Source: Fibrobacteria bacterium | GTDB taxonomy: Bacteria > Fibrobacterota > Fibrobacteria > UBA5070 | Reading direction: 5' to 3' | Assembly (NCBI GenBank): GCA_035352895.1 | Contig: DAOPYN010000010.1 | Span: 24,188-88,187, forward strand | DNA length: 64,000 nucleotides | Part shown: positions 3,667-43,939 of the stretch, in pieces | Numbering within the stretch: the first letter of the stretch is position 1 | Layout of the letters: each line of letters opens with the position of its first letter | Notes under the pieces: model-generated | What the model was told of the DNA's origin: nothing | Databases searched by the model: none | The model's input: only the letters and a program-made list of their open reading frames with translations | Translations under genes and position numbers: made by a program

Positions 3667-4365
3667 ATGGAGGTCCTCATGTCCACCCCCACCAACCGCC
3701 CTCCGGTCCAACACACCTCCAGGGGAGTCACTTTCCTGGAGCTGATGGTCGTTCTGGTGGTCATTGGCCTGTTGAGCGGGCTGGCCGTGGTCAAGTACAA
3801 CACCTTCCAGCGCCAGGCGGAACTGCGGTCTTCCGCGCAGAAACTCTACCAGATCTTCGGATGGGCCCGGCTGGAATCGGAAAAGCGGGGCGACACCTTG
3901 TTGGTGCGGCTGTCCACCTTTCCAGAAGTGAGCGTGTACGTGGACCAGAACGGCGATGGCTTCGTGAATCAAGGAGAGCCTCGACTCTTGATGGATTCCT
4001 TGGCTCGTTCCGTGCGGGTGTTCAAACCAGCGAAGGCTCCACCACCAACCATCGATCCCACCGGTGGCTTTGCTCAGGGCAGCGGTTCCTGTAACTCACG
4101 CAACTGCTGTAGCCGATTCGGCGAAGATGGATTTCCCACTTGGGATGTTCCAGTATTAAAGAATGCGGGGGTTGCGGTATGCGCTCGGAACCTTCCCCGC
4201 ATGCCCTCCGACATCGAGGACGGAGCGATCTACTTGGAATCTGCGGAATCTGGCGTCAAGGAGAAGTGGGCCGTAGTGATGGCCAAGGTGACTTCCAAGA
4301 ATCCATCCCTGTGGACCGCCACCAAGGCTCCGTCAGCGCCCACCGATTGGAGCCAAAAACGATGA
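3667..4365 (+). CDS. prepilin-type N-terminal cleavage/methylation domain protein (FimT/GspH-like minor pilin or pseudopilin)
   Basis: N-terminus MEVLMSTPTNRPPVQHTSRG|VTFLELMVVLVVIGLLSGLAV is a class III signal with Glu at +5. It is the first gene of a four-gene overlapping operon. The stop overlaps the next start (ATGA). Confidence 0.75.
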   Translation: MEVLMSTPTNRPPVQHTSRGVTFLELMVVLVVIGLLSGLAVVKYNTFQRQAELRSSAQKLYQIFGWARLESEKRGDTLLVRLSTFPEVSVYVDQNGDGFVNQGEPRLLMDSLARSVRVFKPAKAPPPTIDPTGGFAQGSGSCNSRNCCSRFGEDGFPTWDVPVLKNAGVAVCARNLPRMPSDIEDGAIYLESAESGVKEKWAVVMAKVTSKNPSLWTATKAPSAPTDWSQKR

Positions 4366-4745
4366 AACGCCACGGATTCACCATTTTGGAAGCCCTGGTG
4401 GCCCTCGTCCTGTTGGGTATCGTGATCACCGGCCTCACCCCCATGTTCCGGGGAGCCAAGTCCTCGCAGGTGGGATCGTACACGGTGGAGCAAGGTTCGC
4501 AGTACGCGGAATTCCGCATCGATTCCCTCCGCTCCCTGGGGCGGGCGGTGTTGGCCAAGCAGCAGATTCCGGGCAACTGGACCAGCCCCGCACTGCCGTT
4601 GGACATGGGCATGACCACCGGAACGTGGATGTGGATGCTGGACACCCCGGCCGTGGCAGGAAAGGCGGGCACCCTCACGGTCCGGGTGCTGTGGCACCAA
4701 GGCTCCGTCCCCCATCAGATCGAGTTGCAAGGAGCCATGCCATGA
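4362..4745 (+). CDS. prepilin-type minor pilin/pseudopilin (PilV/GspI-like), 127 aa
   Basis: Starts MKRHG|FTILEALVALVLLGIV (prepilin peptidase site, E+5). ATGA overlaps with both neighbouring genes. Confidence 0.75.
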   Translation: MKRHGFTILEALVALVLLGIVITGLTPMFRGAKSSQVGSYTVEQGSQYAEFRIDSLRSLGRAVLAKQQIPGNWTSPALPLDMGMTTGTWMWMLDTPAVAGKAGTLTVRVLWHQGSVPHQIELQGAMP

Positions 4746-5986
4746 AACGGGGACTCACGCTCATCGAGCTGCTCATCGCCCTGCTCCTGGCCGGCCTGGT
4801 GGTGGGGTTCGCCGTGACCATGTTGCGCGACGAAAACTCCAACATGATCCACGTGCGGTCGCGCGTCCAATCCCAGACCGCCGCCCGCGACGGCATGAAG
4901 ATCCTGGAATCGGAGCTCCGCGCCGCCGGATTCAGAGTGGCCATGTCCATCTCCACCGCACCGACACGGCCGCTGGAAATGGTTTCCTTGTCCTCCTGCC
5001 CAAACGCCATCGAAGCCCCCTTCCAGTCCTCCGTGGTGGCCATGGATGGCTACAACGGCGGCAACGACACCCTGGATCTGGCCTTTCCGACGATGGTGGA
5101 TGCGACCAGCGGAGCCAATTGCCTATCCATCCGGTGGACGCGGTACGTGGTTGCCAAGAACGGAGATCTGATACGCTACGAGGCGGCATCCAGAGCCAAT
5201 TTTGCAGCAGCACCCCCGGCCGTCGTGGGCAAGAACGTGGATGTGTTCCAGGTTCAATTGGGGGCCTCGGGGATTTCCCGCAACGGCAAGGTGTTCCTGG
5301 CTGCCGCGGATTCGTGCTGTCCAGGCACCACCTGGACCGCGACCGGGGTCACGGTGACTCCCAATGCGACCACCAAGACGGACGAATTGGCCGTGGCAGG
5401 ATCTTGGAGCTACCTATCCAAGGAGAAAGTGCTTTCGATCGGTGAGACCTGGCGCTTGCGGTTCATCGTACAGAACGCGGATGCCGCCCTGCTCAAGGAC
5501 CTGAAGGACAACGCCCCCACCTCGTTCATCAAGATCGGGCTCTTCTCCAGTTCGGGATCGGGAGACGTCACGCTTCCGATCCTCTCGCGCCCTCTCGAGG
5601 CCCCAAGCGGATTCGGACAGCTGGTGGAAGCGGATCTGGTGGTCCCCGAATCCGGCAAGTACAGGATCGGCCTATCCGGAACCGCCACGGGAAAACTCAC
5701 CATCGAGGGATTCAACGCCCTCGCCGTGCGCTTGGGTGCCGATTCCGTTTGGCTCAAGGACCCTTCCGACATGAACCTGGACGATTGGACCCGGGTGAAG
5801 AGCGTCCGTGTGCAGGTGCTCACCCGCGCTCCCGCCGACAAGCAGGATTACCACTCCAAATTCACGGGCTTGTCCAACTTCCTTCAGACCTCCACCTCCG
5901 TTCCAGGGGAGTTCGATGTCAAGGATACCGCCATCCGCGTTCTTCTGGACCACGTCTATCCGGCAGGCAACAATGGAAATTTCTAA
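4742..5986 (+). CDS. prepilin-type minor pilin (PilW/GspJ-like), 414 aa
   Basis: Starts MKRG|LTLIELLIALLLAGLVVGFAV (E+5). It is much larger than canonical PilW/GspJ. Confidence 0.7.
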   Translation: MKRGLTLIELLIALLLAGLVVGFAVTMLRDENSNMIHVRSRVQSQTAARDGMKILESELRAAGFRVAMSISTAPTRPLEMVSLSSCPNAIEAPFQSSVVAMDGYNGGNDTLDLAFPTMVDATSGANCLSIRWTRYVVAKNGDLIRYEAASRANFAAAPPAVVGKNVDVFQVQLGASGISRNGKVFLAAADSCCPGTTWTATGVTVTPNATTKTDELAVAGSWSYLSKEKVLSIGETWRLRFIVQNADAALLKDLKDNAPTSFIKIGLFSSSGSGDVTLPILSRPLEAPSGFGQLVEADLVVPESGKYRIGLSGTATGKLTIEGFNALAVRLGADSVWLKDPSDMNLDDWTRVKSVRVQVLTRAPADKQDYHSKFTGLSNFLQTSTSVPGEFDVKDTAIRVLLDHVYPAGNNGNF

Positions 5987-8228
5987 GCGTTCCGCCCCTC
6001 GCCAGGGAATGGCGATCTTCGCGGTCCTTTCCTTGATGGTGGTGTTCACCGTCCTGGGGGTGGCCGCCATCACCATCGCCCAACGCGACAACTCCAGCAG
6101 CGGAAACGTGCTGGACATCAAGCAGCGCGAAGCGGCCGCCTACGCGGGTTTGGTGTACGCCCAGAACGAACTCGCGCGCGACCCGGCCAACCTGCTGGCC
6201 ATGCTGGAAAGCTGGCGGACCAGGACGCTGTACGCCAGCCCTACCGGCCCCTTCGGACCGGTGTATCTGAAATTCGATCCCACTGCCGCAGTCGCCCTGA
6301 CCACCACCGATCCCGGCATGTACCAGATCCCCGGCTCCACCTCCAAGATCAAGGTGGAAGTCACGGGAATCACCCTGCCAAGCTCCAACCAAGAACCGCG
6401 GATCGCCTTGCGTTCCACGGGCTCCAGCGCTTCCGGAGACGAACAAACGATCCTGGGCGTGTACCAGATCAAGAACATCCGGATGAGCTCCAGCTCCATC
6501 ACGATGCCCCTCACGCACCCGTTCTACGTGAGCGGAGCAGGAAACTGGGACAATCAATCCGTCACCATCGACGGTGGCAATGCGTTCTTTGGCGGCAAGA
6601 CCCACGTCAATGGAACCAATCGTCATGTTATCCTAAAGAGTGCAGGATTGAGAGTGAGCGGCGATTTCGAACTGGACGACATCACAGAATTCACCGTGGA
6701 CAGCAGCGTGTACATAAATGGGGACTTTCTTATCCACCAAATCACGGGGGCTCTCAAACTCAAACAAAACGTAATTGTCACTGGGAATATTTCCCCTCAA
6801 AGTGACGGGGCCACCTTGCAACTTGATAGTTCTCTTTATCTTATGGGGTCGCCGGGATTCACCATTGCAAAAGCTCTTCGCATTGTCATTGGCAAGGATT
6901 TTTACTTCCCAAATGGATCCCTCAAACTTGAATCCGGATCTTGGATCGATGTGGGTGGATCGGCATATATCCGACGATTTGATCAGGACGTTGGAAAAAG
7001 TATTGCGCTGGACGTTGGAAAACGGTTGGAACTATCCGGAAAGGGAGGAGCTCGACATCAATTTTTTGGAACTGGAAATTGGGGACAACTGATTGTAAGA
7101 AACGGTGCACCAGGTAGTACAATCCAGCCAGTCTCTTTTTCTTCAACCTATTTCCCCACCCGAGCGTCCACGGGCCTTCAGGTTTCCAATAACCCTGGTC
7201 CCTCCTGGATAGCCAACAACTTCATTACGGTGGCCAGTACATCAAATAGACTCCGCCTGATGCCCGACAGCGCAACGACCCATTTCCACACAATGGGTAT
7301 GGGATCACCCGTTTACCTCACCTCGGGAACTACTGGAGATGTCGTACTCCTGAACAAATTGGGCAGGCCGGGCGCGGTGAGTCCATCTGTGGATGCCATC
7401 GATGGATTCGACGATGGTCCTCTTGGGCCGCGCTCGGAGGCGGAAATTGCCAACGGAGCGACAAGACCAACAGAAACGTCCGACTTTGAGCTAGGGGTCG
7501 ACCTGAGCAGGGATCCAACCTTGGTTTCGCGTGGATGGATCGCCACTGCAAGCAGTCTTTGCGAAACGCCTTTTCATACCTGCGCGAAAGCGATTCAGAA
7601 TGCATACGATGCAAACGTCAGTTCCAGGTCTCAATTCTACGGCGAGTTCTTTATCGTGCGACTTACCGGAACTAAATTAGGTTGGGACCTGGGGCGCGAT
7701 TCCGCAACTCGACTTAAAGGCAAGTTCATGTTTGTGGTCCAGGGGAACTATGCCGTCGCCGACGTCGTCTGGCCAACTACCGCACCAAACCCAAATGCGA
7801 AAAACCCCCAAAATGTCATTTTCATTTATGCGAGAGGGAAGAACTATATTTTCGATGGTTTCAGTCCTAGATACAAGAACAATACAACAGATCCAGTGGA
7901 GTTTACCGGCTATGTGCGGTATGATGGGGATTGCTCCATGGCAAAACCTTCAATGACACCGCAAGCACCCTTGATCATTAACGGTGCGCTCCATGTGATG
8001 GGTCCCCCGTACAATGGCACTCCTGGCAGCGCCTCATGCCAAGGATTGACAATAAATTCCGGAGCGGCTGTGACATTCAAATTTGACCAGGCCGCGTTGG
8101 ATGCCGTTGGTTCATCGCTGGGAACGGTGTTCACCAAACCCGATGGAACCAGTCTTCCCATGCCCCCCAATCAATTCCTGCTCATGGAGAACTGGGTGCA
8201 GATGCGGACCTTGGGCGAATTGAGGTAG
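5973..8228 (+). CDS. PilX_N-domain minor pilin-like protein (PilX/GspK-like), 752 aa
   Basis: Start MEISKRSAPRQGMAIFAVLSLMVVFTVLGVAAITIAQRD matches the PilX N-terminal domain (hydrophobic segment, no E+5), followed by a large extracellular region. The start overlaps the end of the previous gene. Confidence 0.65.
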   Translation: MEISKRSAPRQGMAIFAVLSLMVVFTVLGVAAITIAQRDNSSSGNVLDIKQREAAAYAGLVYAQNELARDPANLLAMLESWRTRTLYASPTGPFGPVYLKFDPTAAVALTTTDPGMYQIPGSTSKIKVEVTGITLPSSNQEPRIALRSTGSSASGDEQTILGVYQIKNIRMSSSSITMPLTHPFYVSGAGNWDNQSVTIDGGNAFFGGKTHVNGTNRHVILKSAGLRVSGDFELDDITEFTVDSSVYINGDFLIHQITGALKLKQNVIVTGNISPQSDGATLQLDSSLYLMGSPGFTIAKALRIVIGKDFYFPNGSLKLESGSWIDVGGSAYIRRFDQDVGKSIALDVGKRLELSGKGGARHQFFGTGNWGQLIVRNGAPGSTIQPVSFSSTYFPTRASTGLQVSNNPGPSWIANNFITVASTSNRLRLMPDSATTHFHTMGMGSPVYLTSGTTGDVVLLNKLGRPGAVSPSVDAIDGFDDGPLGPRSEAEIANGATRPTETSDFELGVDLSRDPTLVSRGWIATASSLCETPFHTCAKAIQNAYDANVSSRSQFYGEFFIVRLTGTKLGWDLGRDSATRLKGKFMFVVQGNYAVADVVWPTTAPNPNAKNPQNVIFIYARGKNYIFDGFSPRYKNNTTDPVEFTGYVRYDGDCSMAKPSMTPQAPLIINGALHVMGPPYNGTPGSASCQGLTINSGAAVTFKFDQAALDAVGSSLGTVFTKPDGTSLPMPPNQFLLMENWVQMRTLGELR

Positions 8229-8309: not shown

Positions 8310-9938
8310 CTAGCGGAGGAGCGTCCAGGTCGCCTTACCTTGGGCTCCTGTGGCGTGCACCACCACCACGCCCTTTTCCTCCAGGCGAAGGAACGCCACG
8401 GGATCGGCGACCACCCCCTGGGCCAGAAGCCGCCCCTGGAGATTGCTCACCCGGACGGTGATCGGCTCCTGCGACGACGCTCCGTGCATCTCCAGGCCAC
8501 CGATGGTGGATTGGACCCGCCACCGCGAGTGGACCGCATTCTTCCCCACCCGAGTCTCGCCGGGATCGGTTTCGAATTGATCCAGCACCAGGCGTCCCGT
8601 GTCGGAGGTGCTCCACTCGATCCTCAAATCCTGGGGACCGGCGGGGATGTCGATGGAATCAGGAGTGGCGAAGGTTCCCATCGACGCACCGGAAGATGCC
8701 GCCACGGAAATCTGGGAGAGCGTCTCCGAACCACGCTTGAGGAGGATCGTTCCCGCCGACCCAGCCCAACCGCGAAGAATCACGCGCGCACGGAACGCCG
8801 AAGCCGCGCGGACCTGGTACTGGGACCAGGATCCCCCGAACAACTCCAGGTGTGGACGTTCCCCGGGCTTGCCGCTGACCACATGATCAAAACCCACGGA
8901 TCCAAAAGCGCGCGCCTCGACGACGCCGGGCAGGGAGAAGGTGTCGAACCGCGCCTTCACCCGCCCATCCCCCAGGATGGCGGTGCGGAAAAAGCTCCCC
9001 ATGGGAGTCAGGTCGGATGCGGTCCATCCTCCGTCCGGCGAGGCGGAGGGGACCAGCGCATCGCCGCCGCCGGTCGCGCGGGAAAGCGACCACCCGCACC
9101 AGGGCAGTCCCAACGTGTCCAGGACCGCCTTCCAGCGCCCGGCCATTTCCAGATCGGCCTTCCCATCCTTGGGCCGCACCGCCGAAAGCTGGTTGACGAA
9201 CACCGGCAACTTCGCCTCCACCAACTTCCCCAACCGGAGGCGATCCTTGGTTTCGTCGGATCCCGGATCCAGCTTCTGCGCATAGACGACATTCGTGTCG
9301 CCCAAGGGATTGGCCAAGGCGGCGTCGGATTCCCGGCTGTCCCGTGGCGTGGAAACGATCACGACTCCGGGATGGTGGGCGCGGATCACGGAGAGGATCT
9401 CCTGGTGGAGCTTGCGCAGCCGGCTCCAATCGTAATCGTTCCCGGAAAGTCCTTCGTACGGCTCGAAGAGGAGGTTGGGCTTGCCGGCGTAGACCATGGC
9501 CATCTCCTCGAAGAAATCCTTCGCCTCCGCGGGATGGTCGGAGAGCGAATCCTCGTGCCAGGACACCACCACATACAGGCCGCGCTCGATGGCTCCCTGG
9601 ATCCACTGGTGGATCCGGGCCTTGGCCAGGTTGGGGTTGTTCCGATAGGCCTCCAAGGCGGGTAGCCGACTCACATCCATCCTCAAGCGCACCACGGAAC
9701 TGCCCCAATCGGTACCGAGCCACCCCATCGCCTGCGGCCCCCAGACCAGGGACTCGTCCTCGGTGCCCAGGTCTCCCAGGGTCATCCCGGCCAACCGCAC
9801 CTTCTGGCCGGTGAATTCCCCCACCAGCGCTCCTTCGCGCACGGAAAGCCACCCGTGGACGGAAACCGGCGAAGCGCAGATCGCGGACACGGACAAGAGC
9901 GAACAAGCGACGAACGCGGAGCGGAAACAGCGAGTCAT
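8310..9938 (-). CDS. secreted glycoside hydrolase family 5-like protein with T9SS-type C-terminal sorting domain (catalytic residues apparently substituted)
   Basis: Signal peptide MTRCFRSAFVACSLLSVSAICA. GH5 core pattern GLYVVVSWHED...FFEEMAMVYAGKPNLLFEPYEG...VFVNQLSA aligns with canonical ...NEP... and ...TEFG.... C-terminus ...ITVRVSNLQGRLLAQG...GKATWTLLR resembles the Por_Secre_tail. Confidence 0.7.
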   Translation of the reverse strand: MTRCFRSAFVACSLLSVSAICASPVSVHGWLSVREGALVGEFTGQKVRLAGMTLGDLGTEDESLVWGPQAMGWLGTDWGSSVVRLRMDVSRLPALEAYRNNPNLAKARIHQWIQGAIERGLYVVVSWHEDSLSDHPAEAKDFFEEMAMVYAGKPNLLFEPYEGLSGNDYDWSRLRKLHQEILSVIRAHHPGVVIVSTPRDSRESDAALANPLGDTNVVYAQKLDPGSDETKDRLRLGKLVEAKLPVFVNQLSAVRPKDGKADLEMAGRWKAVLDTLGLPWCGWSLSRATGGGDALVPSASPDGGWTASDLTPMGSFFRTAILGDGRVKARFDTFSLPGVVEARAFGSVGFDHVVSGKPGERPHLELFGGSWSQYQVRAASAFRARVILRGWAGSAGTILLKRGSETLSQISVAASSGASMGTFATPDSIDIPAGPQDLRIEWSTSDTGRLVLDQFETDPGETRVGKNAVHSRWRVQSTIGGLEMHGASSQEPITVRVSNLQGRLLAQGVVADPVAFLRLEEKGVVVVHATGAQGKATWTLLR

Positions 9939-10055
9939 GGAACCCTGCCTCGTGGAAACGGTCTACAGAATGTAGAAGGACTTGCGCGGTTCCGGTGCGG
10001 TCCGCGCAAAAGCGGCGATGACTCCCGCGTAGGCACCACGCTCCCCCGGAAACCC

Positions 10056-11213
10056 TCAAACACGGGCCGAGGAACTCGATTCCAGACGCTCGCGCAATCC
10101 CCACAGGGCCTTGGGCGAAAGCTGGACATCCGCCTTGGGAGGATCGATGATCGCCACGCAGTGGAACTGGTCCACGGCGGTGTCGCGATGGATGGGACAC
10201 CCCAGAGGCAATCCGGAAGGCGAGATGTAGCTGGCCACCACCGGCGACTTGGCATCCTTGCCGCGGCGGATCACCACGCCGATCTCCCCGTTTTCGAGCA
10301 AGACGTGGTTGCCCGGAGGGAAGATCCCCAAGGCCCGCACCATCGATGTGGCCACTTGGGGCATCACGAATTTCCCCAGGCCCCGCAGGATCTCCACCAG
10401 GGTCAGGTTCGACTTCTCGGTCGCCGCCCAGCTGCGGTGGGTCACACGGGCGGTGTACATGTCGGAGATCCGCAATACCTGGGCTTCCAGGGGAATCCGG
10501 TCGCCGACCAATTCCAGGTAACCCGTTCCGTCGACGGATTCGTGATGGCACCGCACCGCCTCCAACCAGACCGGATCCTGGACTCCCGACGACCGCAGGA
10601 GCTCCCAGGAGGCCAACGGGTGGCCGCGCATCCTGACCTGCTCCGCGTCGTCGATGGGACCGCTGCGCTCGTTGAGGGTCTCGTGCAACTCCAGGGTCGA
10701 CAGGTTCATGGTCATCGCCGCGCACATCATCGACAACCGCGTGGGTCTGGGCATCTCCAACGCCTTGGCCAAGGCCTCCGCGGCGATGGCGGTGTCCATC
10801 TGGTGCTTGATCGAATGGTGGGGCCAGGTGCCCAGGCAGATGGAGGCGATCGCCGCGTCCTGCTCCTGCAGGCAAAGCACCTGGAGACCTTCGGCCAGAG
10901 CGACGATGGTCTCCCGCAGGCGGAGTGGATCGGGAGCCGGGAGCATCGCGCGCTGGAGGCCGTCGAGCATCTCGGAGAGCGAATCGAAAGCGGGCAGCGA
11001 CGCGTTGCGCCTGTAGAGCCGCCGAGCCGATGCGTCGTCCGATTCCAGGGAGAGACGGCTGGCTCCCCGTCGGATCAGTTCGTCCACCATGGCCTGGTTG
11101 GACACGATCTGTCCACGCCGCAGGAGCAGACGACCCGTTCCGTCGAACAGATCGAAGTCCAGTGCGGTGCCCGCGATCAGGTCCAACGAACCGATCCGTC
11201 GCATGGTGGTCAT
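10056..11213 (-). CDS. HD-GYP domain c-di-GMP phosphodiesterase
   Basis: HD domain followed by HHESVDGTGYLELV (HD-GYP signature). Start MTTMRRIGSLDL at ATG 11213. Confidence 0.8.
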   Translation of the reverse strand: MTTMRRIGSLDLIAGTALDFDLFDGTGRLLLRRGQIVSNQAMVDELIRRGASRLSLESDDASARRLYRRNASLPAFDSLSEMLDGLQRAMLPAPDPLRLRETIVALAEGLQVLCLQEQDAAIASICLGTWPHHSIKHQMDTAIAAEALAKALEMPRPTRLSMMCAAMTMNLSTLELHETLNERSGPIDDAEQVRMRGHPLASWELLRSSGVQDPVWLEAVRCHHESVDGTGYLELVGDRIPLEAQVLRISDMYTARVTHRSWAATEKSNLTLVEILRGLGKFVMPQVATSMVRALGIFPPGNHVLLENGEIGVVIRRGKDAKSPVVASYISPSGLPLGCPIHRDTAVDQFHCVAIIDPPKADVQLSPKALWGLRERLESSSSARV

Positions 11214-11349: not shown

Positions 11350-13716
11350 CTAGTGTCCCCCCACCGCTTCCTTCTGCTGGGCGAGGTCTTCGGATTCCGG
11401 TCCGTACAAGGTGACGCGGTTGCGGCCGTTCTTCTTCGAGAAGTACATGGCCTTGTCGGCGCCATCGATGAAGTCCTGCTTCACCGAGGCCATGTCCGGA
11501 AACAGGCAGACCCCGATGGAAATGGTGACCTTGAGCATCCGCCCCTCGTGCGGGATGGCCATGCCTTCCACCGCGGCGCGGACGCGCTCGGCGCTCTGCA
11601 TGGCCCCCACCTCGTCGGCCTGGGGCATGAGCACCACGAACTCCTCGCCGCCGTAGCGGGCGATCATGTCGCTGGACCGGATGGCCATCCCCACGCACCG
11701 GGCGACTTCCTTGAGGACCAGATCCCCGATGGCGTGACCGTAGGTGTCGTTGAACCTCTTGAAGTGGTCGATATCGAAGAGCATGAGCCCGATGCGCTGG
11801 CCGTAGCGGGTGGCGACCTCCAGTTGCTGGTTGAGCAAGGTCTGGAAGTGCCTGTGGTTGGGGACCTGGGTGAGGCCGTCGATGGTCGCGAGTCGCTCCA
11901 TCTCCTGGTACATCCGCGCGCGCGTCAGGGCTCCGGCCGCGATGGAGGCGATGGCCGCCAGGAGCTTGGCGTCCAGCTCCTGGTAGGAGCCCGCCACGGT
12001 GGACTCCAGGGTGAGCACCCCGAAGCATTGGCGATCGTCGTTGAGGAACGGAGCGCCCATGATCTCATGGCCTCGCCAACCGATCTCGGCATCCATCCGG
12101 GCCTCGAACACCGCCCGAGGCCCGTCTTGGCCTTCGCGGGCCAGGACTTCCCGACCCGTGCGGAAGACGGCCCCGCAGATGGACGAAGGATCGGATGCGT
12201 CGAAGTAGGCCCCACGCTCCGGCAACGGCACGATCCCCGTCGAAAGCTGGACCTGGGCCATCTGCTTGGAGGGATTCCAGAGACTCACGGTCAACCGTTC
12301 CAGAGGGAACAGGGTGCGCAGGGAGGATTCCAGCACGACCAACAGGTCGTCCGGCTTGAGATGGCGGGTGAGCCTGGACTGGATGTCGTAGAAGGTGTTG
12401 GTGATGGTCGCCTGCCGCTGGATGGCCGTCCGCGCGGATTGGACGGTGACCAGAGCGGAAGCGATGCTCGCGAACCTCTTGAAGTAGTGGTAGTGCTCGT
12501 CGGAGAAGGCGCGCGCCCCCTTGTGGTCGACCACCAGGAGAGCCTGGAGCTCGCCGTTGTCCTCGTTGCGCACCGGCAAGGCCATCAGGGACAGGACGCG
12601 TTCGCCCTCCGGATAGTATTCCGGAGCTTCCCCGTAGTTGGCCACATCGCCGGTCAGCAAGCCGGAACGCAGGGAATTTCCCAGCAATCGGACTCCGGGG
12701 ACGATCCGCGCGTCGGGAACCACGGTTCCCTTGCCGAACTTGGCGTCCAGGAGGAGCTCTCCGCTGATGGGATCCACCAGGAATCCCAAGGCGGAATAGG
12801 AACGGAACACCTTGTGCATCAGGTGCACCACCGGTCCCAGCAACCTGGACATCTGCTGGCGGGCCTGGTCGTCCTGCTCGGACAGGATGGAACGGGACAG
12901 GACCTGGGAAGCGGAAGGGTCGATCTCGTCGCCGCTGGAGGACATCGTGGGATCGTCCCAGGCTCCCTGCACGCGCTGGCGCGGAATCGCCGTCGATGCA
13001 CGAGGATCCACCGGAGGATTGGACAAGCCTTGTCCGGATGGCCCCGTGGGACGCGCATGCGATCCCGAAACGGACGCCGTGGTGGAGCCCACCGGCGCGG
13101 AAACGGAAGCCACCGCATGCACCCCGGACGAGGAAGCCGAAGGGGACGAAGCCGACGCCTCGGAAATGCTCAGTCCACCCCGTCCGCCCCCGGAGACTGC
13201 TTCCATCCGGCCCCGCGGACTGGAGACCTGATGCAGGGAGTGGTGGACCAGGAGGAACACGAGAAGCCAGATTCCGACCTGCGCGAAATGGAAGGGGATG
13301 TCGATCAGGGGGATCTGGACGGCCCCCCACAGCGCCAAGCGGCCGACCAGCAGCGGACTCGCCACCAGGACCACCGCACCGGCCAGAAGATGGAGCCGAT
13401 CCCTCTTCGGATCCGAGATCGGAAGCAATGGGACCAGCCATGCGCCCAGGGAAACCAACAACCAGGACGAATCCGTGGGGGCCACCAGGATTTGCGCCAG
13501 CAGCACCCCGATCGCGAGCATCGAGCCGAAGGCTCCGAGCCTGCGCAGCACAGGCCGCGCGAAAGTGGCGGCCACGGCGAAGGCCACCAGGATCCCGCTG
13601 TAGATCAGGAGTCCTGATGTTGGCGTCAGGCCAGGAAACTGGCGCCCACCAACAAGCCATCCGCTCGCGCCGACGATCCACAGGATGGCCGCAGCCGCCT
13701 GAAGGAAAACACCCAC
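11350..13716 (-). CDS. membrane-anchored GAF-GAF-GGDEF diguanylate cyclase
   Basis: Five predicted N-terminal TM helices, a Ser-rich linker, GAF-like regions, then the GGDEF domain (RYGGEEF active-site motif, I-site-like context). Confidence 0.85.
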   Translation of the reverse strand: MGVFLQAAAAILWIVGASGWLVGGRQFPGLTPTSGLLIYSGILVAFAVAATFARPVLRRLGAFGSMLAIGVLLAQILVAPTDSSWLLVSLGAWLVPLLPISDPKRDRLHLLAGAVVLVASPLLVGRLALWGAVQIPLIDIPFHFAQVGIWLLVFLLVHHSLHQVSSPRGRMEAVSGGGRGGLSISEASASSPSASSSGVHAVASVSAPVGSTTASVSGSHARPTGPSGQGLSNPPVDPRASTAIPRQRVQGAWDDPTMSSSGDEIDPSASQVLSRSILSEQDDQARQQMSRLLGPVVHLMHKVFRSYSALGFLVDPISGELLLDAKFGKGTVVPDARIVPGVRLLGNSLRSGLLTGDVANYGEAPEYYPEGERVLSLMALPVRNEDNGELQALLVVDHKGARAFSDEHYHYFKRFASIASALVTVQSARTAIQRQATITNTFYDIQSRLTRHLKPDDLLVVLESSLRTLFPLERLTVSLWNPSKQMAQVQLSTGIVPLPERGAYFDASDPSSICGAVFRTGREVLAREGQDGPRAVFEARMDAEIGWRGHEIMGAPFLNDDRQCFGVLTLESTVAGSYQELDAKLLAAIASIAAGALTRARMYQEMERLATIDGLTQVPNHRHFQTLLNQQLEVATRYGQRIGLMLFDIDHFKRFNDTYGHAIGDLVLKEVARCVGMAIRSSDMIARYGGEEFVVLMPQADEVGAMQSAERVRAAVEGMAIPHEGRMLKVTISIGVCLFPDMASVKQDFIDGADKAMYFSKKNGRNRVTLYGPESEDLAQQKEAVGGH

Positions 13717-14780: not shown

Positions 14781-14853
14781 CGGGATGTAGCTCAACTGGT
14801 AGAGTGCCTGCTTTGGGAGCAGGTGGTCGCACGTTCGAATCGTGTCATCCCGA
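14781..14853 (+). tRNA. tRNA-Pro (anticodon TGG)
   Basis: Cloverleaf drawn by hand: acceptor CGGGATG/CATCCCG, D-arm GCTC..GAGT, anticodon stem CCTGC/GCAGG with loop TTTGGGA (anticodon UGG, G37), T-arm GCACG-TTCGAAT-CGTGT, discriminator A. Confidence 0.85.
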
Positions 14854-14917
14854 CTCCGGAGCAGGAAGTTCTACTCTTTCCTTCCTGTCCCGGCCCTTCA
14901 CCCCCTTAGGAGAACCC

Positions 14918-31644: not shown

Positions 31645-32030
<386 letters not shown>

Positions 32031-43863: not shown

Positions 43864-43939
43864 GGTGGCTGTAGCTCAGTTGGTTAGAGCTCCTGATTGT
43901 GGTTCAGGAGGTCGTGGGTTCAAGTCCCATCAGCCACCC
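43864..43939 (+). tRNA. tRNA-His (anticodon GTG) with encoded G-1
   Basis: G-1 pairs with discriminator C73. Acceptor GTGGCTG/CAGCCAC, anticodon loop TTGTGGT, T-arm GTGGG-TTCAAGT-CCCAT. No CCA is encoded. Confidence 0.9.

Follow-up and report, generated by a model that had tools for sequence, protein, structure and literature searches.

A probably GH5_2-derived protein without either catalytic glutamate, conserved in a narrow clade of Fibrobacteria

Subfamily 2 of glycoside hydrolase family 5 (GH5_2), for which 1A3H/2A3H serve as reference (PMC3526467), includes secreted, modular endoglucanases such as Bacillus agaradhaerens Cel5A (1A3H/1H5V) and Cytophaga hutchinsonii CHU_2103 (5IHS). Non-catalytic GH5 proteins are documented as well, namely GH5_30, Xanthomonas GH5_1-derived expansin/CBM63 proteins, GH5_8-related lipoproteins and C. 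thermocellum RsgI24C-GH5, a cellulose sensor showing that an incomplete GH5 module can bind or sense (Aspeborg et al. 2012, PMC3526467). These lineages have incomplete machinery and long branches and are read as evolving to non-hydrolytic functions, and a burst of change with purifying selection thereafter has been noted for them (Aspeborg et al. 2012, PMC3526467). Here, we describe a GH5-like protein encoded on the minus strand of a 64,000-nucleotide stretch (hereafter the window) of contig DAOPYN010000010.1 (positions 24,188 to 88,187; assembly GCA_035352895.1) from a Fibrobacteria bacterium. Together with its orthologs it forms a further case of the already documented non-catalytic GH5 proteins, but an independent one from Fibrobacteria, probably derived from GH5_2 and combined with a co-degenerate module of carbohydrate-binding module family 6 (CBM6) origin and a C-terminal domain (CTD) of probable type IX secretion system (T9SS) type. 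The clade has the fold, secretion and modularity of the GH5_2 endoglucanases and keeps the equivalents of R62, H101, E135 and W262, but lacks E139, E228, N138, H200, Y202, D99, Y154, W178, Q180, H206, N261 and K267 (Cel5A numbering). Whereas RsgI24C-GH5 lost the acid/base residue only, the clade has lost both glutamates and the glucan contacts. The identical protein stands in NCBI, JGI and ENA records as ‘cellulase family glycosylhydrolase [Fibrobacteria bacterium]’, an automated label that, if counted as a cellulase, would overstate the cellulolytic potential of these Fibrobacteria metagenome-assembled genomes (MAGs).

Fold and catalytic-site mapping

The open reading frame (ORF) occupies exactly 8310..9938, from an ATG to a TAG, and encodes 542 aa (Table 1). 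It matches Pfam PF00150 (GH5) with E=2.4e-20 (73.6 bits against a cutoff of 23.5), and in a phmmer search of the PDB residues 23-321 match GH5_2 endoglucanases of known structure at E~1e-41, best of all the B. agaradhaerens Cel5A group. An AlphaFold2 (AF2) model built from a 21-sequence alignment has a mean predicted local distance difference test (pLDDT) score of 80.8, rising to about 90 over most of the barrel, in which eight strand/helix repeats are present; all statements on the model refer to this run, and one made from 5 sequences (pLDDT 54) was not used. Foldseek superposes the model on Cel5A 1h5v with a template modelling (TM) score of 0.92 and a root-mean-square deviation of 2.0 Å at 32% identity. 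The profile match and the (beta/alpha)8 barrel place the protein in GH5 as a family of fold and homology. Its GH5_2 origin is a closest-match assignment for a clade on a very long branch, all best PDB matches being GH5_2 enzymes (1EGZ and 1TVN are labelled GH5-2). An earlier note on this DNA, made from the sequence alone, had aligned the core by hand to family-5 cellulases and proposed a superposition on a GH5 structure; the homology is borne out by all three comparisons, and the motifs that it quoted are present as WHED at 127-130, FEPYEG at 158-163 and VFVNQLS at 246-252.

We mapped the catalytic residues by three routes: pairwise phmmer alignment to the PDB, a hidden Markov model (HMM) alignment of the clade with 135 catalytically intact GH5_2 domains and Cel5A, and inspection of the local register. 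In the Cel5A sequence, rebuilt from the phmmer alignment, the Glu of NEP is chain position 139 and the Glu of SEWG position 228, in agreement with the literature numbers of the acid/base and the nucleophile. All three routes agree that E162 corresponds to N138, G163 to the acid/base E139 and Q250 to the nucleophile E228. K222 is paired with H200 and D224 with Y202 by phmmer and equally in the HMM alignment, and R84 (R62), H128 (H101), E159 (E135) and W283 (W262) are retained. At the end of beta-4, where an acid/base Glu is expected in N-E-P, all five orthologs have [E/D]-G, with the Gly invariant, and at the end of beta-7 the position of the nucleophile Glu holds Gln in three orthologs and Arg in two. 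The active-site octet R, H, N, E, H, Y, E, W is thereby reduced to R84, H128 and W283, the other positions having changed from N to E/D, E to G, H to K/R (H in one ortholog), Y to D and E to Q/R. This pattern, shared by all five, is not attributable to chance or sequencing error.

That the protein is an ordinary active GH5 cellulase, its missing glutamates a product of mis-alignment, is a reading with next to no probability left. A Glu (E162) does stand one residue ahead of the canonical position, but no support for a shift was found. The register PN-L-L-F-E-P-Y-E-G-L-S-G-N-D-Y-D-W is free of gaps and has the same anchors on both sides at equal spacing (E159=E135, G166=G142, D168=D144, W171=W147), which resolves the worry about a one-residue indel, and phmmer and the HMM of 135 intact domains agree. 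In the model, beta-4 is predicted to end at residue 162 and beta-7 to span 246-251, as expected for clan GH-A; there is no Glu or Asp at or beside position 250 (N-Q-L), and H200 and Y202 are lost as well. An apparent ‘E-N-G’ in some relatives, with Gly in the acid/base column, is an insert-state artefact of the clade-derived profile, and NEP is intact in those proteins.

Because the nucleophile position holds Gln or Arg, double displacement of the GH5 type is not possible; judged by its residues, canonical GH5 catalysis is excluded and the protein cannot be a canonical retaining glycosidase. The earlier note had suggested as much, from a Glu-to-Gln replacement at the nucleophile and a Glu shifted by one, with Gly in its place, at the acid/base. 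The former (Q250 for E228) and the loss of canonical activity agree with all three mappings, both glutamates being absent in each. Gly163 does occupy the canonical acid/base position, but the Glu is not shifted: E162 replaces Asn138 without an indel. The same applies to the ‘shifted acid’ that the note considered, which is a Glu/Asp162 at the Asn138 position that could in principle act as an acid. Nor does a profile alignment restore a Glu at both catalytic positions, an outcome the note had thought conceivable; neither has one, and no indel is needed to align them.

The extent of change was understated in that note, as many near-invariant residues are replaced besides the two glutamates. Among positions at which 70% or more of the intact relatives agree, the clade has (in Cel5A numbering) S/V/A for D99 (99% conserved in relatives), L for Y154 (98%), E/D for N138, G for E139, A/S for G174, D/L/K for W178 of the +1 platform, R for Q180, K/R for H200 (one ortholog keeps His), D for both Y202 and H206, Q/R for E228, L/F for W229, S/A for G230, G for N261 and A/G/V/T for K267; in addition, D130 of the query stands where 75% of relatives have His. 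Among the beta-glucan-holding residues, W39, W178, Q180, Y202, H206 and K267 are all replaced. The substrate contacts reported for a GH5_2 enzyme in a numbering offset by about 35 from that of Cel5A (His70, Trp74, Tyr75, Tyr101, Glu174, Trp212, Gln214, Tyr236, His240, Trp296, Lys301 and Glu303; PMC11926323) are mostly among the positions replaced in the clade. Within the clade, G163, L177, R202, D224, D228, G282 and D88 (query numbering) are fixed new residues and positions 200, 250, 288 and 290 vary. Fixation of new residues at many of the replaced positions suggests re-specification, not random decay.

A narrow clade under purifying selection

A word-indexed search returned four further clusters of 543-544 aa, 49-54% identical to the query, whose named sources are Fibrobacterota/Fibrobacteres MAGs; neither the single sequence nor a 21-sequence profile led this search beyond the five clade members. 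Among 1.84 billion representatives searched exhaustively with HMMER, the clade is one 50% cluster and scores 994 bits. The protein ranked next owes its 642 bits solely to four intact GH5 domains, and single-domain matches score at most 262 bits. A scan of 185,579 species representative genomes gave one clade member. A metagenome scan with a looser peptide pattern returned, among the matches listed, ordinary GH5_2 loci only and missed the window's own JGI contig, and has no bearing on abundance. Runs that are invariant in the clade include WHEDSLSDHP and SRE.DA.

In a neighbour-joining (NJ) tree of 171 GH5_2 domains, which is distance-based, weakly resolved and without bootstrap, the clade is monophyletic and sits on a stem of 0.63 substitutions per site; no other internal branch is as long (median 0.034), and the clade's root-to-tip depth is 1.03 compared with 0.54 for the rest. 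For the pair with the least saturated synonymous divergence (P0002 and P0003, dS 0.65), the Nei-Gojobori omega is 0.154 overall, with 0.104 in the barrel, 0.247 in the middle module and 0.280 in the CTD. The clade is under purifying selection and has a narrow range in Fibrobacteria/Fibrobacterota MAGs; GH5 homology, incomplete machinery, a conserved lineage and a long branch, the marks of non-catalytic GH5 groups, are all found in it.

Loss of catalytic residues is also the first sign expected of an inactivated gene, and for this reason a pseudogene in decay, or an isolated error of assembly or sequencing, has to be weighed. The chance that either accounts for the data is very small, and a pseudogene is excluded: the ORF of 542-544 aa is intact in five lineages at dS from 0.65 to 2, omega in the least saturated pair is 0.10-0.15 and far from 1, the identical protein is found on 6 contigs from independent ENA, JGI and Logan assemblies, and the signal peptide, the CTD and a block upstream of the start codon are all conserved.

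Catalytically intact proteins with the order signal peptide, GH5_2, CBM6 and CTD align end to end with the query, and two of them come from Fibrobacteria MAGs (P0026, MCB9497065.1; P0079, HNY29668.1). These two share the class and the three-module order with the query and, like the T9SS-cargo glycosidases of F. succinogenes, have a basic C-terminal domain, but they keep NEP...H.Y...E...W and the CBM6 motifs GY/GGWQxW/NLNW and are 23-28% identical to it. Read from these alignments, the simplest history would be divergence from an intact GH5_2-CBM6-CTD endoglucanase within the class. The ancestor would have been a Fibrobacteria endoglucanase with a signal peptide, GH5_2, CBM6 and a basic C-terminal sorting domain. 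A burst of substitutions in one lineage would then have turned the acid/base Glu into Gly and the nucleophile Glu into Gln or Arg, and the same burst would have removed the positioning Asn, His and Tyr, most of the glucan-contacting cleft residues and the cleft-A residues of CBM6.

Other GH5_2-like barrels with degenerate catalytic sets were seen. P0008 (MGL1900780.1, 901 aa), from a Fibrobacterales MAG and thus of the same phylum, has AEP and Gln at the nucleophile position in its domain 302-597, and GQP and Ser in its domain 603-897; its two barrels, unlike the query's single one, stand in tandem behind an N-terminal region of 300 aa. A sister position to the query clade is not supported by the NJ tree, and its degeneration appears to be an independent loss. 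The closest matches also include multi-domain GH5_2 proteins of protists, P0030 (KAJ9445649.1, Diplonema papillatum, 1591 aa), with an intact first barrel and a degenerate second one (SQP, Gln at the nucleophile), and P0007, of 960 aa, from a transcript of Gymnodinium smaydae. An intact barrel is likewise joined to a degenerate one, with DNT at the acid/base site, in P0028 (783 aa), the members of whose cluster derive from MAGs of Paludibacteraceae.

Accessory modules and the likely role of the protein

The middle module, absent from the earlier note, derives from CBM6. Residues 330-460 of the query fall below the threshold of Pfam CBM_6 in a direct search (E=0.069; 13.9 bits, cutoff 28.9), and the homology is established through the modules of its relatives: 15 of the 21 alignment members, the query not among them, match CBM_6 (best E=6.8e-37), hhalign links the query module to them with 98.9% probability (E=3.6e-17), and the module of one relative matches CBM6s of known structure (1W9S and 1UXZ). 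The conserved CBM6 motif residues are E20, Y33, W39, W92 and N121 by the 1UXZ chain index. Cleft A of CBM6 needs two stacking aromatics, Trp92 among them, plus Asn120 and Glu20, and cleft B is the glucan/cellulose site (PMC10284105). When cleft A is examined by Y33/W92 (CmCBM6 numbering) and Asn120/121, the clade has E/D for Y33, no aromatic for W92 and V/Q for N121 (E, none and V in the query), and on these replacements the canonical cleft A is lost. Trp39 of cleft B is retained in the clade (W371 of the query), and the module has an invariant motif of its own, LR.EW...DTGR...DQ.E. The CBM6 of the GH5_34 arabinoxylanase HhXyn5A (PMC10284105), also attached to a GH5 barrel, has likewise had its cleft-A aromatic pair and Asn120 replaced and has no defined cleft, but its catalytic domain is active, whereas both modules are degenerate in the query.

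The N-terminal signal peptide is visible in the sequence, in line with the secretion proposed before, and would be of the Sec/signal peptidase I type given a cleavage site without Cys in the orthologs. The T9SS type A CTD is described as an immunoglobulin-like beta-sandwich of seven strands (PMC11285876). The query CTD has the fold looked for, namely about 70-100 aa, seven strands and a basic character: seven beta-strands are predicted at 474-541 (pLDDT about 80-87), and its isoelectric point (pI) is 10.7 compared with 5.8 for the remainder of the protein. It aligns in hhalign to the CTDs of nine intact relatives sharing the architecture at 96.6% and to those of six relatives chosen by eye as T9SS-like at 86.7% (E=4e-6), the two sets aligning to each other at 95.7%, and 4-5 of the 21 alignment members match Por_Secre_tail/TIGR04183. 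The T9SS-type CTD of the earlier note is borne out as a probable homologous domain by strands, pI and hhalign. The last 220 aa, searched directly as sequence against the PDB, gave no match, and no other CTD-bearing, GH5 or CBM6 protein was found within the window. Use of the T9SS by Fibrobacter has been proposed (PMC6851124), as has a role as T9SS signal for the basic terminal domain that F. succinogenes glycosidases carry (Raut et al., PMC6851124). Routing of the protein through the T9SS is probable and reasonable on this comparison of sequences.

The explanation that we favour, with reservations, is a maintained pseudo-glycosidase that is secreted, probably displayed on the surface and non-hydrolytic, and whose former -1 pocket has been re-specified. 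The protein would be exported by Sec and then, probably by means of its basic seven-stranded CTD, by the T9SS to the cell surface, where it would not hydrolyse beta-glucan and would most likely serve as a binding or scaffolding module. Its former -1 pocket would present the new, clade-invariant charged residues E/D162, D224, D228, D130, R202 and D88 alongside the retained R84, H128 and W283. Several points weigh against this explanation. The residues expected to bind the ancestral glucan are gone, and an extended glycan-binding cleft is not obviously conserved, as the replacements of W178 (D/L/K), K267 (A/G/V/T) and the nucleophile (Q/R) vary. The query CTD itself falls below the thresholds of TIGR04183 and PF18962 in a direct search. 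Five sequences allow coarse conservation statistics at best, and most pairs approach saturation in dS. The earlier note had suggested a lectin-like protein. Binding of the ancestral ligand is not supported, as the beta-glucan contacts are replaced, some of them variably within the clade, and cleft A of CBM6 is lost too; with the ancestral binding residues gone from both modules, there is no support for a lectin for beta-glucan.

The main rival, which we consider improbable, is that the barrel is catalytic by non-canonical machinery. In inverting chemistry, E/D162 may supply the general acid and D224 or D228 the base, or catalysis may be substrate-assisted on an N-acetylated or amino sugar and need no nucleophile from the enzyme. 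Omega is lowest in the barrel (0.10), the acidic residues E/D162, D224, D228 and D130 are fixed at pocket positions, and the -1 subsite keeps R84, H128 and W283; ‘alternate mechanisms’ have been left open for GH5 proteins with incomplete machinery (Aspeborg et al., PMC3526467), and a chitosanase is reported within GH5_2 (PMC3526467). However, Gln in three orthologs and Arg in two is unlike a catalytic position, the residues of the +1 and -2 subsites are lost and variable, and the CBM6 targeting module is without its binding cleft. We also know of no clan GH-A enzyme that works without the beta-7 carboxylate, save with engineered or exogenous nucleophiles.

The finding as it stands is modest and of specialist interest. 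With a pseudo-glycosidase as the favoured explanation, it offers a natural case for the reuse of a glycosidase scaffold after loss of both catalysis and ancestral substrate binding, under purifying selection.

Locus context and upstream block

In every ortholog contig that is long enough, the gene order is GGDEF, HD-GYP, the GH5-like gene and then, facing it, the PilX/GspK-like, PilW-like, PilV-like and GspH-like pilin genes, and the GGDEF/HD-GYP order is kept in the loci that bear the upstream region (L001/L003, L005, L006-L008 and L010). The pilin set comprises a 228 aa GspH/FimT-like, a 127 aa PilV/GspI-like, a 414 aa PilW-like and a 751 aa PilX/GspK-like protein; in the last, no domain is recognisable beyond the PilX/GspK-like N-terminus. 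The GC content of the stretch 6001-8000 is 0.535 compared with about 0.64 for the window. Beyond the pilin cluster lie infC-rpmI-rplT-pheST, and the region, hrpB included, is wholly syntenic. At one locus (L004, GCA_016715065.1) a DDE transposase region replaces the upstream HD-GYP/GGDEF genes, and the GH5-like gene persists. The same protein, P0004, has two contexts, compared over L004 8619..9918 (transposase region upstream of the gene) and, in another sample, L005 487..1212 (HD_5 gene upstream), and these indicate a recent rearrangement beside the gene.

This setting raises the prospect that the protein is an accessory to the neighbouring c-di-GMP enzymes and/or the minor-pilin cluster and serves surface adhesion by protein-protein contacts, not by glycan binding, which we also judge unlikely. 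The conserved gene order speaks for it, and in F. succinogenes a link of both pilins and c-di-GMP to adhesion and cellulolysis has been drawn (PMC6851124). A scan of the 117-nt spacer between the HD-GYP and GH5-like genes found no terminator and no sigma-70-type promoter, and was uninformative. However, with the whole region syntenic (hrpB, infC-rpmI-rplT, pheST), adjacency may only mirror genome relatedness; the gene persists where a transposase region stands in place of the c-di-GMP genes; the pilin cluster is convergent, which precludes co-transcription; and the GH5-like gene has a conserved upstream block of its own. Because of the whole-region synteny and the replacement at L004, functional coupling to the neighbours may be entertained but not more than that.

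A bolder reading, which is doubtful, is that barrel and CBM6 were jointly re-specified for a new ligand or chemistry and that the protein acts at the surface in the adjacent c-di-GMP/pilus adhesion programme. In that case a charged or amino sugar, for instance a component of an exopolysaccharide, may be accommodated by the fixed acidic cluster E/D162, D224, D228 and D130 together with R84, H128, W283 and R202, or these residues may make up a non-canonical catalytic centre, and the protein would found a GH5-derived family of new function in Fibrobacteria. Should the ligand be a matrix polysaccharide or a protein partner from the adjacent pilus/c-di-GMP genes, it would inform on substrate attachment by non-rumen Fibrobacteria.

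Table 1 Features of the GH5-like gene and its surroundings (window coordinates unless a locus is named; residues in query numbering, equivalents in Cel5A numbering).
Feature	Position	Strand	Basis or remark
Pseudo-GH5_2 / CBM6-like / CTD protein	8310..9938	-	Complete ORF, 542 aa + TAG
Signal peptide, aa 1-22 (MTRCFRSAFVACSLLSVSAICA / SP)	9873..9938	-	Read from sequence and ortholog alignment; low-pLDDT N-terminal helix in model
GH5_2-derived (beta/alpha)8 barrel, aa 23-325, catalytically degenerate	8964..9872	-	PF00150, PDB phmmer, Foldseek, model strands b1-b8
End of beta-3 and loop, aa 127-136 WHEDSLSDHP	9531..9560	-	Invariant in clade; H128 = Cel5A H101 (kept)
End of beta-4, aa 159-163 EPYEG	9450..9464	-	E159 = E135, kept; E162 = N138; G163 = acid/base E139, lost
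End of beta-6, aa 222-224 KLD	9267..9275	-	K222 = H200, D224 = Y202, both lost; D224 clade-invariant
Beta-7, aa 247-252 FVNQLS	9183..9200	-	Q250 = nucleophile E228; L251 = W229; S252 = G230
CBM6-derived beta-sandwich, aa 330-460	8559..8951	-	hhalign to relatives' CBM6; mapping to 1UXZ
C-terminal domain, aa 468-542, 75 aa, basic, probable T9SS-type sorting	8313..8537	-	Model strands, pI, hhalign
Conserved non-coding block CCTTCTACATTC ... CGTTTCCACGAGGCAGG ... ATG	9939..9985	-	Candidate promoter, operator or Shine-Dalgarno (SD) sequence
Upstream block in orthologs	L001 ~9955-10000; L005 ~1250-1294; L010 ~9955-10000; L009 1-38		
HD-GYP-type (HD_5) protein	10056..11213	-	Directly upstream of GH5-like gene, same strand
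GAF-GGDEF diguanylate cyclase	11350..13716	-	Upstream of GH5-like gene, same strand
Four prepilin-type (N_methyl) genes	3679..8228	+	Tail-to-tail with GH5-like gene; conserved at all orthologous loci

The block upstream of the start codon is about 45 nt long, CC[TG]TGCTACATTC ... CGTTTCCAsrAGGCAGG ... ATG, and is kept in 5/5 orthologs with synonymous sites near saturation. It could combine a -10-like TACATT with an SD-like AGGCAGG, or be an operator. An SD-sequestering stem (CCUGC/GCAGG pairing) in the leader was considered and is not claimed, as it shows no covariation and has one mismatch in the window. No further copies of the block were found within the window. The RNA genes of the window are a class A RNase P RNA (31646..32023, minus strand), a tRNA-Pro(TGG) (14781..14854, plus strand) and a tRNA-His(GTG) (43865..43939, plus strand).

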